A stretch of DNA of 8,876 nt from a virus (taxonomy: Duplodnaviria > Heunggongvirae > Uroviricota > Caudoviricetes). Within the stretch, counting starts at the first letter, position 1; each line of letters begins with the position of its first letter. Positions 117-8,427 of this stretch are shown here, piece after piece. The stretch lies in the IMG/VR virus record IMGVR_UViG_2703718798_000006; one strand, given 5' to 3'. The notes beneath the pieces are model-generated. The model was given only the letters and a program-made list of their open reading frames with translations. It was not told where the DNA came from and made no database searches. Position numbers and translations under genes: made by a program.

Positions 117-1109
117 CTAGTCAATGGACAGTTTATGGACACTATCAGCCAGCGGATTAAAGCTAATCGCATCCTGTAAAAAGTCCGGTGAAAAATGCGC
201 ATACGTCATCGTTTGTTGAATCGTGGCGTGCCCAAGGATTCGCTGTAACGTAACGATATTTCCGCCGTTCATCATGAAATGCGTGGCGAACGTGTGACGC
301 ATAACGTGAGTCGCCTGACCTTTGGGTAAATCCGGTTTCACCTCCTGAAGGATATCCCGAAAACGGATGTAATCAGCCTGGTACAATAGCCCGGTTTTTC
401 GGGTTTTTATCAACGAAAGCACCGTATCAGAAACAGGAACCGCGCGGGATTTTCCATTCTTTGTGTTAAAGAACATTACGCGGTTACCAACGATATGCTC
501 ACCACGTAAGCCAGCTGCTTCCCCCCACCTTGCGCCAGTGGAAAGACACAGAACAGCAACACGACGCGCATCCCCCTCGAGTCGTTCAAGCAGCCGATCA
601 ATCTCATCATCTGAAAGAAAGGCCATTTCTGTATTCCTGACCTTGAGCTTACGTATTCCACGCACCGGGTTTTCGTTATGGAAAACCTCCGCATCAATCA
701 GCGAGGTAAACATTGCAGACAAGGCGCACAAATCACGATTAACACTGGAGGGCATTAATCCGGCCTGTAATTTGTCTGAACGATACCCGAGCATAAACTT
801 TCGCGTCATCTCACTGGCGCGGGGGTCCCTCATCTCACGGTTTATTTTTTCCAGCCTGACCCTGTAAGTATCCCCGTAAGGCTGATTCCGGCCATCAAGC
901 ACCCACCAGGCATCTATCAGTTCGGATAACCGACGCTGATCAGCTGGCTTGGCCTGCCACGGTTTATCGTGGAAATTCTGCAAAACATACCTTTCAAACT
1001 CCTGTGCCTTTGACTTCAGGGTAAAAATCTTACGGATCCGCTTTCCTTCCGTCCCTTGCGGTCTTACATCAACCTTATAACGCCCGTCTTTGAGTTGCTT
1101 AATCGACAT
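117..1109 (-). CDS. int: Tyrosine site-specific integrase (P2/186 Int family), 330 aa from ATG at 1109
   Basis: ORF 117..1124 opens with TTG; first ATG at 1109 (MSIKQLKDGRY...) is preceded by GGAGGGG. Length ~P2 Int (337 aa). C-terminal catalytic region has H-x-x-R (VMRHTFATH) and GHATIQQTMTYAH with terminal Tyr, typical of tyrosine recombinases. Confidence 0.9.
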   Translation of the reverse strand: MSIKQLKDGRYKVDVRPQGTEGKRIRKIFTLKSKAQEFERYVLQNFHDKPWQAKPADQRRLSELIDAWWVLDGRNQPYGDTYRVRLEKINREMRDPRASEMTRKFMLGYRSDKLQAGLMPSSVNRDLCALSAMFTSLIDAEVFHNENPVRGIRKLKVRNTEMAFLSDDEIDRLLERLEGDARRVAVLCLSTGARWGEAAGLRGEHIVGNRVMFFNTKNGKSRAVPVSDTVLSLIKTRKTGLLYQADYIRFRDILQEVKPDLPKGQATHVMRHTFATHFMMNGGNIVTLQRILGHATIQQTMTYAHFSPDFLQDAISFNPLADSVHKLSID

Positions 1110-1178
1110 GATTAGCCCCTCCAACGGATGAATCAGCCGTACACTCTCTACGGGATGAAACCCGCTCGATGTACAGCG

Positions 1179-1623: not shown

Positions 1624-2148
1624 ATGCGGAAGTCAATTGCCGATAAAGAGTTATCTGACACACAAGCCCTTCAGGAAAACGACAGCATCACCGAATCCGT
1701 TGGCGCGGCAAACGACGATGAACACCAAGAGGAAAAGAAAAAACGCACCTACAAAAAAGGGGCAACCTTGCGACTGGATGGCCCGGTAGCCGGACTTTGC
1801 TCACTTGAAAAAGGGGCAGCCTATATCGGGTTGACAAAAGCTGCATTGCGCGTGGCGCTTCAGCGAAATCAGATGCCTGGACACAAGACCCGTTCAAACC
1901 CTGAAGATGAAAATTCGGATGGCGTGTGGTGGTTTAACGCCAGAGAGTGGGACAAGCTGGCTGACGAACTACCAGAATGCGAGCCGCCAGAATGGCACAA
2001 CTGGAAAAGCTACTGGACATACGACCGACAGAAAAGAAAGTTTTCCCCGGCAAACAAAGAAGACTGCCAGACCATCAATGGAAAGCGGGTTTACACAGGA
2101 AGAAAGTCAAAACTGGAGCAACACCAATACAGTGGAGGCAACCAGTGA
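1624..2148 (+). CDS. Cox/Apl-like excisionase or early regulator (HTH), unusually long at 174 aa
   Basis: ATG 1624 with strong SD AAGAGGA (1609-1615). Central segment LEKGAAYIGLTKAALRVALQRNQMPG...GVWWFNAREWDKL resembles the excisionase/AlpA/Cox HTH plus aromatic wing pattern. First rightward gene opposite the repressor. N-terminal ~60 aa is acidic and low-complexity. Confidence 0.5.
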   Translation: MRKSIADKELSDTQALQENDSITESVGAANDDEHQEEKKKRTYKKGATLRLDGPVAGLCSLEKGAAYIGLTKAALRVALQRNQMPGHKTRSNPEDENSDGVWWFNAREWDKLADELPECEPPEWHNWKSYWTYDRQKRKFSPANKEDCQTINGKRVYTGRKSKLEQHQYSGGNQ

Positions 2149-2232: not shown

Positions 2233-2688
2233 CTACCAGGCTGATGGATGATCATCATCAATATCAAACACATTTCTGTAAAAACGAGAATGTTGCAAGG
2301 GATGAATAAGCGACCCCCAACAATCATAAATATCAGCCAGTTCGAACACATCGTATGAGAGATGTTGAGCAAACGATTCGGCACCTTCAAAAGACTCAAA
2401 CACCTCATCATACAAGTGAATGTTTTCAGGATACGAAAGTGACAAGCAAAAACCAGACGTAGATTCCGTAACCAAGAAGACAAGGTGATATTTATCATTC
2501 ACCAGTGACTGAGCACATTTTTTTACAGAGCGAAGAATCACAGGGGAACGCGCGCCAATACGAAAGAGTTCTGCATGAGCACGGGCATCAACAAAACTGT
2601 GAAACCCCTCACTTCTTGCAAGCTCACGTTCGGCAGCACGCAAAACCCAAAACCACCGCCCAGATTCGGATGTAAGGATAATTTTCAT
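2233..2688 (-). CDS. Hypothetical protein, 151 aa, antisense to the early operon
   Basis: Only long ORF across 2233..2688; plus strand has no ORF >=60 aa from 2252 to 2574. Protein-like alternating beta/alpha pattern (MKIILTSESG..., PVILRSV..., HLVFLVTE...) with acidic C-terminus. ATG at 2688 has a weak SD. Confidence 0.45.
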   Translation of the reverse strand: MKIILTSESGRWFWVLRAAERELARSEGFHSFVDARAHAELFRIGARSPVILRSVKKCAQSLVNDKYHLVFLVTESTSGFCLSLSYPENIHLYDEVFESFEGAESFAQHLSYDVFELADIYDCWGSLIHPLQHSRFYRNVFDIDDDHPSAW

Positions 2689-2952
2689 ATGAATAAAGAG
2701 AAATCTCCGGATTATTTTGTGAAACGATTACAGGATGCAACAGAGTCAATGTTGATTGCCCTGAATAATTATTCTTACGAAGAGGCCGTAACGGTACTTG
2801 AGTGGATAAAGGAAAAAATAACGGAAGACAGCATCGTCAAGATGCAGAGTATCAACATCTCCCGTGACAAAACATTTCCACTGCGAATACCGCCAAAACG
2901 ACGACTGGTTTACTCGATACCAGTCTCAATGCAGTGCAAATTGCCGAAATAG
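2689..2952 (+). CDS. Hypothetical protein, 87 aa (alternative start ATG 2575 gives 125 aa)
   Basis: ATG 2689 preceded by AAGGA (2674-2678); the ORF upstream of 2689 overlaps the minus-strand gene and encodes a proline-rich low-complexity stretch. Confidence 0.5.
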   Translation: MNKEKSPDYFVKRLQDATESMLIALNNYSYEEAVTVLEWIKEKITEDSIVKMQSINISRDKTFPLRIPPKRRLVYSIPVSMQCKLPK

Positions 2953-3467: not shown

Positions 3468-3710
3468 ATGATCGAAGCCTACAAAATACTTATCAATAAC
3501 GCGTTGCAACGTTATCACTTTGAACTCGCAAACCGGGGCGTAACTAAGGATGAAAGCCTTCGTAACTCACTGCGCGGCGCAATTATGGGGCTATACAACT
3601 GCGCACTGGGCAGCGATGACCGTGAAGCGCTGGAAGAATTAAAGTCGATTATGACAGAACTGTTTGAAGGTGAAATTGTCGAGCCTTACTTCACAGGGGT
3701 AGCCGCATGA
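3468..3710 (+). CDS. Hypothetical protein, 80 aa
   Basis: ATG 3468 preceded by AAGGA (3456-3460) at 7-nt spacing; stop overlaps the next start (ATGA at 3707-3710). Confidence 0.65.
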   Translation: MIEAYKILINNALQRYHFELANRGVTKDESLRNSLRGAIMGLYNCALGSDDREALEELKSIMTELFEGEIVEPYFTGVAA

Positions 3711-3832
3711 GCATATTCCTTTCATGGGTAATTCTGATTATCTCCGTGCTTATGGCAATCGGCATTATGCGAATTATCCACACACTGAAGGATATCGAAT
3801 TATTCTTTACCGGCGATAAACGCCGTAAATAA
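3707..3832 (+). CDS. Small single-TM peptide, 41 aa (MSIFLSWVILIISVLMAIGIMRIIHTLKDIELFFTGDKRRK)
   Basis: Not in the ORF track (below cutoff). ATG overlaps the upstream stop (translational coupling), GGGG 7 nt upstream; hydrophobic helix followed by a basic tail. Confidence 0.4.
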   Translation: MSIFLSWVILIISVLMAIGIMRIIHTLKDIELFFTGDKRRK

Positions 3833-3844
3833 AGCAAAAACCTT

Positions 3845-3940
3845 ATGAAGAATGTAAAAGCAATACACACCATCGCCACTGTATGGGTGATATTTCAGGT
3901 GAGTGCGCTTATCTGGTTAGCCCTGAAGATCTGGGAATAA
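3845..3940 (+). CDS. Small hydrophobic peptide, 31 aa (MKNVKAIHTIATVWVIFQVSALIWLALKIWE)
   Basis: ATG 12 nt after the previous stop; no clear SD. Single hydrophobic helix. Speculative. Confidence 0.25.
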   Translation: MKNVKAIHTIATVWVIFQVSALIWLALKIWE

Positions 3941-4046
3941 CCTGAAGCCGAAAGCAGGCGCGGAATAACACCAGAAAACACACGAGCAATTAATTAAGGC
4001 ATTCATGCCTTCGGGTTCCCTTTGTCTTTTTTTCAGGAGTCAACAA

Positions 4047-4280
4047 ATGAGAACAGCCGAATCACCCGGCAGAGAAATAACCGCCAGACCAGCTAACCAT
4101 CATGCGCATATCAGCATGGCCGCAAGAAAAGCCGAGCGTGCACATATCTGCGAATTACTGCGCGAGCTGACCGAGACAGCGAAAGAAAAACACACCTCCC
4201 CGCTGGAAACCTGTTCAGTCATTGAACGACTGATTGCAATGCTCACCAGCCAGGACGAACCGAAGGAGCCCGTACAATGA
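4047..4280 (+). CDS. Hypothetical protein, 77 aa (ORF opens at 4005)
   Basis: ATG 4047 preceded by AGGAG (4035-4039) at 7-nt spacing; the upstream ATG 4005 lies inside a hairpin with no SD. Stop overlaps the exonuclease start (ATGA). Confidence 0.55.
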   Translation: MRTAESPGREITARPANHHAHISMAARKAERAHICELLRELTETAKEKHTSPLETCSVIERLIAMLTSQDEPKEPVQ

Positions 4281-4858: not shown

Positions 4859-4941
4859 GGTGAAGCATGGTCGCCATCCTGAATGTGTGTTGCTGCCCCC
4901 CCCTGAACGTGGAAAGAAAAGCCCGCGCATCGCTGCGTTTA

Positions 4942-4966
4942 TTCCGCAACGGTGTGCGGAATTTTT
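4942..4966 (+). terminator. Rho-independent terminator: 7-bp stem TTCCGCA/TGCGGAA, 6-nt loop, T5 tail
   Basis: Perfect hairpin immediately followed by TTTTT, in the gap between the exonuclease and dam. Confidence 0.55.
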
Positions 4967-5090
4967 CACGCATAAAGCCCCACAACTACCTGGTGATAAG
5001 AATCGGTTTTCGCTGGCGATTACTCAGCAAGAACAACGGGAAGTCATGGGATTTATTAACGCATGAAACCTATAACAAAGAGGCCGCGTT

Positions 5091-6071
5091 ATGAGCAAAG
5101 AACTGTTATCCGGCACACCGCTGAAATGGGTGGGTGGCAAAAGCCGCATCATGAACACACTGAAGGTGCATCTGCCAGAAGCTGACTGCCTGGTTGAACC
5201 GTTCGTGGGTGGCGCATCGGTATTCATGAACACCAGTTACAAACGCTACATCCTGGGTGATTCCAATGGTGCGCTGATTAATTTCTGGCGGGCAGCACGG
5301 GACAACACAGACAGTCTGATCGACGAGGCGAAAACCCTGTTCCTGAACCACAACAACAGGGGTGACTATCTCATCATTCGCGAAACCTTTAACGCAGAGA
5401 ATCATGCCTTCCTGAGTAGCAGAACGGGAATAAGCGACCGCCGTGAACTGCGACTGGCCGCCATGTTTTTGTACCTCAACCGGCACTGTTTTAATGGCCT
5501 GTACCGGGTGAACGGAAAAGGCGATTTTAACGTGCCTTTCGGCTGCTACCGCAAGCCCTATTTCCCTGAGCATGAAATCCGCGCATTTGCAGACAAGGCA
5601 AACAGCACCCGAACGCTGCTTATCCACGCAGATTTTAAGGATACGCTGAACTCTGCCAGTCACCTGTTCGGCATGGGCAACACGCTTTGCGTGTACTGCG
5701 ATCCCCCTTACCTGCAATTCAGTGGCCGGGACAATTTCACCGCCTACGGAAAACCATTCGATGAACACGAGCACGTTCGCCTGAGGGCAGCACTTGACCG
5801 CCTTTCGCAGGAAACGGGCGGCATGACCAGCATCACCATCTCCAATTCCGACACACCGGAAACCAGACGCATTTATCAGGGTTACCGGATGAACTGCATA
5901 CAGGCACCACGCAGCGTTGGCGCAAGAACCCGCGAACCAGCACCGGAAGTTATCGCCACCCTGAGACAGTGCGACGCCTGCGGTCACTATGGCGGTGGCT
6001 ACTGCCCGGACTGCGGACCGGTAACGGGAGATGCAACTTACTGCGTGATGTTTACCCCTGCCAGTACGTGA
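5091..6071 (+). CDS. dam: Dam-family N6-adenine DNA methyltransferase with C-terminal Cys4 extension, 326 aa
   Basis: SD AGAGG at 7-nt spacing. N-terminal LKWVGGK and AdoMet motif FVGGASVF (res 38-45), catalytic DPPY (res 204-207). C-terminal CDACGHYGGGYCPDCG (CxxC-x7-CxxC, nt 5970..6014) not present in canonical Dam as I recall it. GATC specificity not verifiable here. Confidence 0.9.
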   Translation: MSKELLSGTPLKWVGGKSRIMNTLKVHLPEADCLVEPFVGGASVFMNTSYKRYILGDSNGALINFWRAARDNTDSLIDEAKTLFLNHNNRGDYLIIRETFNAENHAFLSSRTGISDRRELRLAAMFLYLNRHCFNGLYRVNGKGDFNVPFGCYRKPYFPEHEIRAFADKANSTRTLLIHADFKDTLNSASHLFGMGNTLCVYCDPPYLQFSGRDNFTAYGKPFDEHEHVRLRAALDRLSQETGGMTSITISNSDTPETRRIYQGYRMNCIQAPRSVGARTREPAPEVIATLRQCDACGHYGGGYCPDCGPVTGDATYCVMFTPAST

Positions 6072-6558: not shown

Positions 6559-6899
6559 TTTATATCGCCGGTCCCATGACCGGATACAAAGACGACAACA
6601 GACTGGAGTTTTGCCTGGCGGACCTGAAGCTTAGGTACGCCGGAAACATTGTTCTTAATCCTGCCGTACTGCCTGACGGATTAAGCCAGCAGCAGTACAT
6701 GAGCATTTGTATTCCGATGCTCATGTGTGCCGATGCCATTTACTTACTGGATGGATGGGAAGAGTCCGCTGGCGCACGGGCTGAGTACGCAATGGCACTC
6801 AAGCTGAACATGCCGGTGTCATTCCCGGAAAATCGGGCGGCCGGCGAAACTGTCGCACAGCTGCTTGGCAAATCAAAAGCCGCACAGGCGACTGAGTAA
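6549..6899 (+). CDS. Nucleoside 2-deoxyribosyltransferase-like (DUF4406-type) protein, 116 aa
   Basis: SD GGGAGG upstream. N-terminal VIYIAGPMTG and later ...DAIYLLDGWEESAGARAEYAMA... match the motif pattern I associate with the NDT-like/DUF4406 fold. Confidence 0.65.
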   Translation: MAVIYIAGPMTGYKDDNRLEFCLADLKLRYAGNIVLNPAVLPDGLSQQQYMSICIPMLMCADAIYLLDGWEESAGARAEYAMALKLNMPVSFPENRAAGETVAQLLGKSKAAQATE

Positions 6900-7337
6900 C
6901 CGACCGGAGATCGAAACATGATTGCGCGAAGAGCTGCCAACCGCCTCACAGGCTTTATTCCAGGCAAGATTAATCATGCACTCCATGATGGGACTGTCAC
7001 TTTCCTCAACAAAGGAGAGGCGCGCAATCATGCATTCCTTACTAATCACATGGCGCTGACTGATAAGGCGCTGGTAACTGACTGCCTGCCATTCAGCCTT
7101 TTCAGCCCTGCGTTCAAAACTGGCAGCCATGCACTGCCAAAGCAGAAACAGAACCACACTGAAGAGTACCAACACAACAAAATCACACAGGACAAACGCC
7201 GCAACACCAACCAGAAAGGCGCTGATTCGCAGAGCAGCAGAAACGCGTCGGTGAAACACACATGTAATACGTTCAAGCCAGTAGCTGTACCACAGGTCAA
7301 AAAGAATGTCGTAATCAGAAGGGAGCTTATCACTCAT
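6873..7337 (-). CDS. Hypothetical two-TM membrane protein, 154 aa, antisense to the early operon (alternative start ATG 7397)
   Basis: Internal ATG (7337) of minus ORF 6873..7673. Two adjacent hydrophobic helices (ISAFLVGVAAFVLC-D-FVVLVLFSVVLFLLW) flanked by basic residues. The overlapping plus ORF 6918..8030 is low-complexity and runs through two terminators. Weak SD (GGGG 10 nt upstream). Confidence 0.4.
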   Translation of the reverse strand: MSDKLPSDYDILFDLWYSYWLERITCVFHRRVSAALRISAFLVGVAAFVLCDFVVLVLFSVVLFLLWQCMAASFERRAEKAEWQAVSYQRLISQRHVISKECMIARLSFVEESDSPIMECMINLAWNKACEAVGSSSRNHVSISGRLLSRLCGF

Positions 7338-7500
7338 CAGAAACACCCCGCGTATGCAGACAATCACCAGTTGCCAGGTGATATTAATTCGCCACATTCT
7401 AACCACATCAGCACGCAACACAAAAACCGCTTGCCAGCGTTCGCCTGGTCGGGTTACAGTTTTCCCGCACCTCATAAAACGGGTGCCGGGATTGCAACCC

Positions 7501-7542
7501 CCGCTGACTACACAAGCGCACAACCGCGCCAGCGGTTTTTTT
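7501..7542 (+). terminator. Strong Rho-independent terminator T1: stem CCGCTG/CAGCGG with internal GCGC/GCGC sub-stem, then T7
   Basis: 6-bp GC-rich outer stem (7501-7506 / 7530-7535) directly followed by TTTTTTT (7536-7542); 4-bp inner stem 7516-7519 / 7526-7529. Confidence 0.6.
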
Positions 7543-7582
7543 GTGCGTACCGCATCGTCACATCTTTTTCGCGTCAGAATTA

Positions 7583-7660
7583 TGGTGGGGCGTACAGGGC
7601 CGACTTCGGTCGGGCCGGGGTCTTGTGTAGCCGGTGGTTGCAACCCTGTACGTCTCACCA
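7583..7660 (+). ncRNA. Candidate structured RNA (sRNA or cis-acting leader/antiterminator) in the 17-bp stem fold
   Basis: 7583-7599 pairs with 7644-7660 over 17 bp including two G-U wobbles (7590-7653, 7588-7655), which are valid only in plus-strand RNA. Enclosed hairpin 7600-7604/7609-7613 has loop TTCG with C-G closing pair (cUUCGg). ORF-free region. Confidence 0.45.
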
Positions 7661-7692
7661 CCCAGAATTGCAACCTCTGGATGGTGAGTTTT
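7654..7692 (+). terminator. Putative intrinsic terminator T2: 7-bp + 5-bp stem (one mismatch), 9-nt loop, T4 tail; mutually exclusive with the 17-bp stem
   Basis: CTCACCA(7654-7660)/TGGTGAG(7682-7688) and CCAGA(7662-7666)/TCTGG(7676-7680), followed by TTTT (7689-7692). The 5' arm is also the 3' arm of the long stem at 7583-7660. Confidence 0.45.
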
Positions 7693-8016: not shown

Positions 8017-8427
8017 ATGAAGAGCGTTAAGGGACTTTCAGATATTCAGGATTTTTTTAACTGGATGTGGGCAGTGGATCCCCGGCTGGCTTCCCGCCTG
8101 AACGACTGGCACGACTATTACCGCCGCGCCTGTAAACAGGCCGCCAGACACGTCACCACATACGGGGATTTCTCCTTCACCGTTGACGACCGTTACCGCG
8201 TGGACGTGAAAGGTGATGGTTTTGGTTTATTTCACATCAACGGAACCGACAGCACCGCCATCAGTTGGTCGTCGTCAGAGATGACGCTTGTTCTGGAAAT
8301 GACAACGCACAGCGTGGCCGTGAAAGGCATATACACCGCAGAAGACTTTATCGGTGAATATCAGCGCCTTCTCGTGCTGTACCGCGCGGCGTTTCAGGCG
8401 GCGACTGCCGGGGAGTGCGACGCATGA
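8017..8427 (+). CDS. Hypothetical protein, 136 aa
   Basis: ATG 8017 preceded by GGAGG (8007-8011); stop overlaps the next start (ATGA 8424-8427). Confidence 0.65.
   Translation: MKSVKGLSDIQDFFNWMWAVDPRLASRLNDWHDYYRRACKQAARHVTTYGDFSFTVDDRYRVDVKGDGFGLFHINGTDSTAISWSSSEMTLVLEMTTHSVAVKGIYTAEDFIGEYQRLLVLYRAAFQAATAGECDA

Follow-up and report, generated by a model that had tools for sequence, protein, structure and literature searches.

Two adjacent single-helix peptides in the early region of a P88-like Escherichia coli prophage

The window, meaning the whole 8,876-nt stretch of prophage DNA analysed here, encodes two adjacent short ORFs, ORF1 and ORF2, which we interpret as genuine early genes for single-pass inner-membrane proteins acting on the host envelope, the first translated by coupling to the preceding gene and the second by reinitiation. 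Taken as a whole, this reading is given a probability of about 0.55. ORF1 belongs to a widespread and already annotated family, and ORF2, found in a single prophage lineage, is plausibly a new small gene.

Small phage membrane proteins are under-studied, and a few have proved to inhibit host machines with precision. ORF1, present on thousands of contigs of E. coli, Shigella and Salmonella, is thereby an inexpensive and clearly defined candidate for screening by expression, and ORF2 illustrates that standard annotation can overlook a second, lineage-specific peptide gene beside an annotated one. The finding is otherwise ordinary: the picture of a P2-like early region is unchanged, and the sequence assigns no mechanism to either peptide.

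Prophage setting and predicted membrane helices

The window originates from the early region at the left end of a P88-like E. coli prophage (Xuanwuvirus, Peduoviridae; P2-family), and the features discussed below are collected in Table 1. The closest phages on deposit were found in the P88-like Xuanwuvirus group of the Peduoviridae, and near-identical copies (95–99%) are carried by approximately 20 complete E. coli genomes. In relatives, the gene encoding the replication endonuclease (gpA) comes next after the genes of the window, and the DUF4754 gene is labelled "DUF4754 family protein" by PGAP. Both ORFs were found on the early-gene strand of the P2-like prophage, in agreement with the early-operon placement given in a preliminary description of this DNA; continuity of the early transcript is nevertheless an assumption, since a minus-strand gene is situated between cox and the DUF4761 gene. 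For the 77-aa gene, 4047 was taken as the true start, as variation in the length of the upstream T-run among relatives breaks the mechanically predicted ORF that begins at ATG 4005.

Two scans of species-representative genomes, one with the exact hairpin pattern and one with a profile of the 77-aa gene, gave no matches. Scans of viral contigs using DUF4754 of the types found at loci L011 (E. coli SCU-106) and L002 added almost no further loci, and a word-indexed protein search with DUF4754 returned near-identical matches only. Within the collections scanned, the locus type is restricted to prophages of the E. coli group.

Table 1 Features of the window discussed in the text. Positions are those of the 8,876-nt window.
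Feature	Position	Strand	Details
Tyrosine integrase gene	117-1124	-	
HTH repressor gene (C-type)		-	
Cox-like gene	1624-2148		
Minus-strand gene	2233-2643	-	Between cox and DUF4761
DUF4761 gene			Before DUF4754
DUF4754 gene	3468-3710	+	80 aa; Pfam PF15946, E = 1e-15; phrog_2549
SD-like AGGGG for ORF1	3695-3699	+	Inside the DUF4754 3' end, 8 nt 5' of the ORF1 start
ORF1	3707-3832	+	41 aa, predicted single-pass membrane protein; ATG 3707, TAA 3830-3832; product MSIFLSWVILIISVLMAIGIMRIIHTLKDIELFFTGDKRRK
131-nt segment with ORF2	3833-3963	+	Whole block present in some relatives, absent in others
ORF2	3845-3940	+	31 aa, hydrophobic single-helix peptide; ATG 3845, TAA 3938-3940; product MKNVKAIHTIATVWVIFQVSALIWLALKIWE
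Hairpin	3996-4011	+	Stem AAGGCA (3996-4001), loop TTCA, TGCCTT (4006-4011)
Tail and T7 run	4013-4033	+	GGGTTCCCTTTGTC, then T7 at 4027-4033
77-aa gene (phrog_22206)	4047-4280	+	SD AGGAG 4035-4039; first gene 3' of the hairpin
Rv2179c-type 3'-5' exonuclease gene			After the 77-aa gene
ParE-like toxin ORF	4867-5094		
Dam methylase and DUF4406 genes			In the window

The two ORFs had been described as tandem peptides of 41 and 31 aa with one hydrophobic helix each, and the coordinates, hydropathy and structure predictions all agree with this. The maximum Kyte-Doolittle mean over 19 residues was 2.75 for ORF1 and 2.01 for ORF2. When all ATG-initiated ORFs of 28–60 aa in the six frames of the window were compared, 4 out of 38 reached a value of at least 1.9 (0.6 ± 0.8 in shuffled sequences), and ORF1 and ORF2, adjacent and on the same strand, make up two of these four. 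AlphaFold2 predicted a single continuous helix in each case, covering residues 2–38 of ORF1 (pLDDT 84) and residues 2–30 of ORF2 (pLDDT 92). The transmembrane (TM) segment of ORF1 is predicted to span approximately residues 2–24 and is followed by a conserved, charged amphipathic tail. By the positive-inside rule, ORF1 would adopt an N-out/C-in topology with the tail (R22, K28, E31, F34) in the cytoplasm, and ORF2 would be oriented with its N-terminus inside.

ORF1 and its coupling to the DUF4754 gene

ORF1 is virtually certain to be a real membrane-protein gene. ORF1 loci were gathered by anchoring on DUF4754 in IMG/VR and in annotated genomes, and in each of the approximately 100 loci obtained (44 distinct ORF1 DNA sequences) the start codon overlaps the TGA stop codon of the DUF4754 gene as ATGA. 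This arrangement, which supports the coupling to the upstream gene given in the preliminary description, holds even where the DUF4754 proteins share only 25–43% identity, and was found with four divergent DUF4754 types. The anti-SD duplex energy for ORF1 is -6.6 kcal/mol, and a value of -6 is reached by only 9% of the plus-strand ATGs in the window; at the position of this SD, relatives have GGAGG or GGGG. ORF1 would in our proposal be made by translational coupling, through the ATGA overlap together with the SD inside the DUF4754 gene.

Comparison of the window type with the P88 type gave pS values of 0.70–0.82 and pN values of 0.17–0.20 for ORF1 which, with synonymous sites near saturation, corresponds to a dN/dS of approximately 0.1. 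On these comparisons ORF1 is under purifying selection, and its variable columns are distributed over codon positions 1/2/3 as 22/13/28. A set of 92 distinct full-length peptides showed no variation at S6, W7, I23 and I24 and very little at L10, I11, A17, G19, R22, K28, E31 and F34. As conserved residues are found in each part, both the helix and the juxtamembrane tail appear to be constrained; some copies carry a frameshifted (45-aa) or truncated (30-aa) form, so the tail is in part dispensable.

The preliminary description expected peptides of this size to be missed by annotation, which does not apply to ORF1. All close relatives have a PGAP annotation for it, a 126-nt gene for a "hypothetical protein" (e.g. 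WP_000021704.1), the exact 41-aa sequence is present on at least 956 public contigs, and a 37-aa type occurs on at least 1000 contigs of E. coli, Shigella and Salmonella, in some cases named "prophage membrane protein". In tblastn searches, 12 phage records were matched, 11 of them with 64–71% identity over at least 95% of the length of ORF1 (E down to 8e-11), and the match to the twelfth, Chuche, was confined to ORF1 residues 1–30. The P88 gp07 "membrane protein" (YP_009113050.1) was found to be a homolog of ORF1, with 68% identity over 41/41 residues (tblastn E = 2e-10). The two proteins share the ATGA overlap after DUF4754 as well as a TM helix with a charged tail; P88 gp07 has 37 aa and ends in ...TGE, whereas ORF1 has 41 aa and ends in ...TGDKRRK. 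With full-length homology, ATGA synteny and an N-terminal TM helix containing S6, W7, A17, G19 and R22, ORF1 has the features of the P88 gp07 family. An ORF1 profile compared to 1.84 billion representative sequences retrieved 14 representatives, all belonging to this family, which by this search is small and closed.

In E. coli SCU-106, the coupled slot behind DUF4754 is occupied by a different 34-aa TM peptide, MSSTLIIIASWVILLASFVVSYFVVKLLTQYLNL, with an unrelated tail. Its resemblance to ORF1 is above chance (shuffle P = 0.005), and the presence of this peptide in the slot suggests that a coupled TM helix is kept rather than any particular tail. The same peptide was also considered as a homolog of ORF2 on account of a shared 13-nt sequence, CATGGGTGATATT, but the similarity was at chance level (shuffle P = 0.46) and a divergent relative of ORF1 is favoured. 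Paralogy between ORF1 and ORF2 was likewise unsupported (shuffle P = 0.10). A further candidate within this region, a nested ORF in the +2 frame of ORF1 (3724–3819), was rejected; it showed a codon-position variability of 28/22/13 and was missing from several loci. A programmed -1 frameshift from DUF4754 into the TM helix was also considered, but the ORF1 frame was found to be open only from 3674 and no slippery heptamer was seen by eye in 3674–3706.

The coupling could also mean that ORF1 serves as membrane subunit, or anchor, in a module of two proteins with DUF4754, where coupling would set the stoichiometry and the cytoplasmic tail would dock the DUF4754 protein. An ATGA junction that is invariant throughout the loci and across the divergent DUF4754 types is what such a module would be expected to show, and the TM peptide in the coupled slot of SCU-106 and the conservation of K28, E31 and F34 in the tail point in the same direction. 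A docking tail is harder to reconcile with the unrelated tail of the SCU-106 peptide, and locus L002 carries an ORF1 that is 95% identical to that of the window beside a DUF4754 that is only approximately 25% identical. As near-identical ORF1 proteins thus accompany highly different DUF4754 proteins, tight co-evolution of the two is disfavoured and the partner idea is weakened, leaving the module a doubtful explanation, though the best placed of the alternatives to our main reading.

ORF2 and the segment that carries it

ORF2 is probably a lineage-specific gene of one small prophage lineage, judging by its distribution and pattern of change, and we consider it likely to be translated and functional. 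The 131-nt block in which it resides is cleanly missing in E. coli 2013C-3033 (locus L010), where the ORF1 stop codon abuts ATAACACCAG. Complete E. coli genomes include 21 with the block and 5 with the downstream 82 nt only. ORF2 is absent from SCU-106 and from all P88-type loci, no homolog was found among deposited phages, and PGAP never called it, including in annotated relatives; for this ORF, the expectation that annotation would overlook it was correct. The exact peptide is on deposit as KGM81220.1 and in two viral MAG records.

The ORF2 frame is open in 8/8 DNA haplotypes, representing 44 loci from viral, genomic and metagenomic contigs. A minimum-change count over codons 1–28 gave 13 synonymous and 11 non-synonymous changes, compared to ratios of 4:19 and 3:21 in the other frames. 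In a neutral simulation with 24 substitutions the mean was 6.3 synonymous changes and the probability of at least 13 was 0.0036, a test that comprises only 24 inferred changes in 8 related and possibly recombinant haplotypes. In the hydrophobic core (codons 17–28), 1 non-synonymous change was found versus 5 synonymous ones. The sole internal indel is a 3-nt in-frame insertion, and the gap between the ORF1 stop codon and ORF2 is 12 nt in 43/43 loci. Conservation in related prophages had been named as a check in the preliminary description, and with these results both ORFs display comparative signs of coding.

The alternative we consider next is that ORF1 is the sole gene and ORF2 a chance open frame within a recently inserted or otherwise non-coding 131-nt segment, whose apparent conservation would come only from the close kinship of its carriers. 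ORF2 has no Shine-Dalgarno sequence (-0.1 kcal/mol), in contrast to the operon's other genes, all of which have one. Its narrow distribution, with no counterpart in L010, L011 or any P88-type locus, no homolog in deposited phages and no PGAP call, is also what a chance frame would give, and 24 random substitutions spare the open frame 30% of the time. The C-terminus is furthermore altered by a 1-nt insertion near the end, which exchanges a final KIWE for KNLGII (each followed by a stop codon), and when the window was compared to loci L016 and L104, ORF2 was the most divergent segment, with 17.7% difference versus 2–7% in the flanks. Such a frame would, however, not be expected to show an excess of synonymous changes confined to the ORF2 frame, an internal indel in a multiple of three or a constant spacing to ORF1, and strongly hydrophobic small ORFs are uncommon by chance. 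A structured sRNA in the segment was also considered and rejected; neither strand folds better than shuffled sequences, which leaves no alternative RNA role to account for the segment. On balance, a chance origin of ORF2 is rather unlikely.

In our main reading, where ORF2 is a gene, it would be translated by termination-reinitiation: ribosomes terminating at the ORF1 stop codon would restart 12 nt further on, in an A-rich and unstructured leader. The ORF2 start region was found to be unpaired in the minimum free energy (MFE) fold.

The downstream boundary element and comparison with known systems

A hairpin followed by a T-rich tract had been noted after the two ORFs and is indeed present at 3996–4033, but it lacks the form of a canonical terminator. 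It was not flagged in a scan for consensus terminators, its T7 run begins 15 nt past the stem, and the stem has 6 bp with 3 G-C pairs; an intrinsic terminator would have a G+C-rich stem and a U tract within 0–2 nt. Its folding energy was no better than that of shuffled sequences (z = -1.07 for a 51-nt stretch and +0.38 for an overlapping 56-nt stretch). An alternative fold that places the U tract beside a stem reached only -7.9 kcal/mol, and the inner helix of this fold is disrupted in relatives. The stem is invariant across relatives of the window type, with a single change located in the loop (locus L019), and the T-run varies in length from 6 to 8. The sequence 3964–4046 (82 nt) is 92–100% conserved, even in relatives without ORF2 or ORF1. 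We read the hairpin and T-run as a conserved boundary element and a candidate tR1-like element rather than a canonical intrinsic terminator; the element could act as a terminator, an attenuator or a stabiliser of mRNA 3' ends.

The comparison with tR1 comes from the related phages 186 and P2. According to GenBank, tR1 of phage 186 follows fil and dhr and is noted among the regional terminators that are anti-terminated during the early lytic phase, and a "putative rho-independent terminator" follows gene B in P2. The window, 186 and P2 have a layout in common: a stop cluster of the TTAATTAA type comes first, then a short hairpin with a GGG(C/T)(A/T)T(T)C...T-rich tail behind it, and finally the SD for the gene that follows; in 186 and P2 the hairpin is followed by GGGCWTTCTTTT, ahead of that SD. 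All three elements are positioned at an equivalent boundary between the first gene block and the exonuclease/replication block, whereas their stem sequences differ. Position and the GGGYWTYC...T motif agree with a 186 tR1-type element, but window-type and P88-type elements could be aligned only ambiguously by automatic means.

P88-type loci have a UCCGC-AUUC-GCGGA hairpin (5 bp, 4-nt loop) after ORF1, followed by at least five different downstream genes. This hairpin has almost no U tract, in contrast to the long T-run located 15 nt from the stem in the window. Ten distinct variants of the P88-type hairpin include one compensatory change from C:G to U:A and one mismatch closing the loop, and three single-change variants give G.U pairs in the plus-strand RNA and C.A in the complement; the pattern of compensatory and G.U variants favours a hairpin in the plus-strand RNA for the P88-type element. 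The window AGGCA/UGCCU stem was also considered as a fully covarying counterpart of P88 UCCGC/GCGGA. This was rejected, as MAFFT pairs the window sequence AAGGCATTC with the P88 post-hairpin sequence GAGGTATTC, and covariation is therefore claimed within the P88-type set only. Judged by sequence, the identity of the window hairpin with the P88-type hairpin is uncertain.

As ORF1 and ORF2 lie just 5' of an element placed like 186 tR1, the two peptides would end the first-transcribed early segment. The fil and dhr genes of 186 are comparable in this respect, as these small genes come last in the promoter-proximal block, ahead of a hairpin and U-rich element, and GenBank notes describe them as non-essential and responsible for a division block and a host-replication block, respectively. 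The proteins themselves are different: Fil (75 aa) and Dhr (66 aa) are not transmembrane, with maximum Kyte-Doolittle values of 1.26 and 0.49. Homology to division inhibitors was assessed by direct comparison with Fil and Dhr only, and alignment of ORF1 and ORF2 with these two proteins in hhalign gave probabilities below 1%. A 6-residue likeness between IIRIVH in Fil and IMRIIH in ORF1 was not significant.

Cell-division inhibitors encoded in prophage early regions include Kil of phage lambda and DicB. An activity as division inhibitor, membrane-protein inhibitor or toxic peptide, as suggested in the preliminary description, is hypothetical for ORF1 and ORF2 and gains indirect support only from their place at the end of the promoter-proximal block, where 186 has fil and dhr. 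Searches of Pfam, PHROG, NCBIfam and PADLOC gave no family match for ORF1 or ORF2, neither peptide matched a solved structure among PDB sequences, and full-text literature searches on DUF4754, Xuanwuvirus, the peptides and 186 tR1 returned nothing informative on function. No function was found reported for any member of the P88 gp07/ORF1 family.

Our main reading continues with a host-envelope-modulating mechanism, which we put forward tentatively. Both peptides would be encoded on the part of the transcript that is produced first upon infection or induction. They would become embedded in the host inner membrane and act there through helix-helix contacts with a host envelope protein, or jointly with the DUF4754 protein, and they would serve as non-essential host-modulating factors in lytic growth. 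A bolder extension, which we consider improbable, is that DUF4754 and the TM peptide coupled to it, supplemented by ORF2 in this lineage, make up an uncharacterised early host-takeover module of P88-like phages, whose peptides inhibit a specific host inner-membrane machine. The target might then be the divisome, a transporter or receptor, or a membrane-bound defence effector, and ORF2 might be a small gene early in its spread, acquired recently or arisen de novo.

Type I toxins such as Hok, Ldr, TisB, ShoB and Zor, as well as regulators of the AcrZ and MgtS type, are inner-membrane peptides of 20–50 aa with one hydrophobic helix. ORF1 and ORF2 resemble both groups in being small and in having short charged ends around a single hydrophobic helix, and one or both might accordingly be envisaged as membrane-damaging, type I toxin-like or holin-like peptides serving host killing, abortive infection or addiction, in a region where the nearby ParE-like ORF indicates the presence of toxin-type cargo. 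We consider this very unlikely. Unlike type I toxins, both ORFs are part of a phage operon and coupled to upstream translation, with neither a promoter of their own nor a long, regulated 5' UTR. Rfam gave no match in 3700–4050, no antisense or adjacent sRNA was found, and the region holds no structured RNA. The promoter scan yielded one weak promoter-like site on the minus strand, inside ORF1, and the terminator scan none, with no convincing promoter or terminator found on either strand around ORF2. PADLOC matches were zero. Lacking an antisense or neighbouring RNA, a promoter and RNA structure, the two ORFs do not pass the test by which type I toxins are defined.

Least probable of all is that ORF2 is a regulatory uORF or leader peptide controlling the hairpin or the 77-aa gene, as its location between the coupled gene and the terminator-like hairpin and its occurrence only upstream of the phrog_22206 gene might suggest, given that its stop codon lies 56 nt 5' of the hairpin and out of reach of the ribosome, that the hairpin and downstream gene exist without ORF2 in L010 and L011, and that selection acts on the amino acids of its hydrophobic core.

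A mosaic boundary and a possible recombination boundary around the 41-aa peptide gene

The junction between the DUF4754 gene and ORF1, which encodes the 41-aa single-helix membrane peptide, was found to be a sharp mosaic boundary when window 3468-3832 was compared with L002, L007 and L104, three relatives carrying ORF1: the lineages differ by approximately 58% at the DNA level in DUF4754 versus only 2–6% in the adjoining downstream ORF1. On the 3′ side of the ORF1 homologue, the P88-type loci encode a hairpin (UCCGC-AUUC-GCGGA) that is found at the same position in approximately 60 loci (L022-L091) and lies 5′ of at least five different genes. Its variants include one compensatory pair change as well as three changes resulting in G·U on the plus strand only, and the hairpin may also act as a boundary at which gene modules recombine.

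ORF1 was also compared to the phage 186 early gene fil (L109 2453-2680); the C-terminal part of Fil (GFLIIRIVHFVIKGVK) bears a loose likeness to an ORF1 segment (IGIMRIIHTLKDIE), which was not significant (hhalign probability 0.4%).

Start of the 77-aa gene

The T-run at 4027-4033 comprises six to eight Ts among relatives, and these length differences shift the frame of an ORF that an ORF scan called from ATG 4005. The 77-aa gene therefore starts not there but at ATG 4047, which is preceded by AGGAG at 4035-4039.

Further features of the early region

Features in the window and in the P88-type locus L003
Feature	Position	Strand	Remarks
136-aa gene	window 2233-2643	-	between cox-like gene and DUF4761; no family match
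87-aa gene	window 2689-2952	+	between cox-like gene and DUF4761; no family match
75-aa ORF	window 4867-5094	+	ParE-like toxin domain (PF24732, E = 1.2e-18)
isrK RNA match	window 7467-7542	+	Rfam, 59.6 bits, over gathering score
C4 antisense RNA match	window 7578-7665	+	Rfam, 78 bits, over gathering score
Hairpin	L003 3095-3125		5 bp, 4-nt loop; conserved

Relatives such as CP145707 carry a 195-nt ORF in place of the 136-aa and 87-aa genes, and this gene pair looks like a moron-like insertion breaking the early operon. The Dam methylase gene starts (5091) before the end of the ParE-like ORF, for which no antitoxin partner was evident in the adjoining genes.

The isrK and C4 matches are consecutive and constitute a predicted RNA pair resembling that of P1/P7 immI, within a P2-like prophage. 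A long ORF called by scan only (6873-7673, minus strand) lies opposite the two matches, and the pair is followed downstream by a gene at 8017-8427 and by that for the replication endonuclease.
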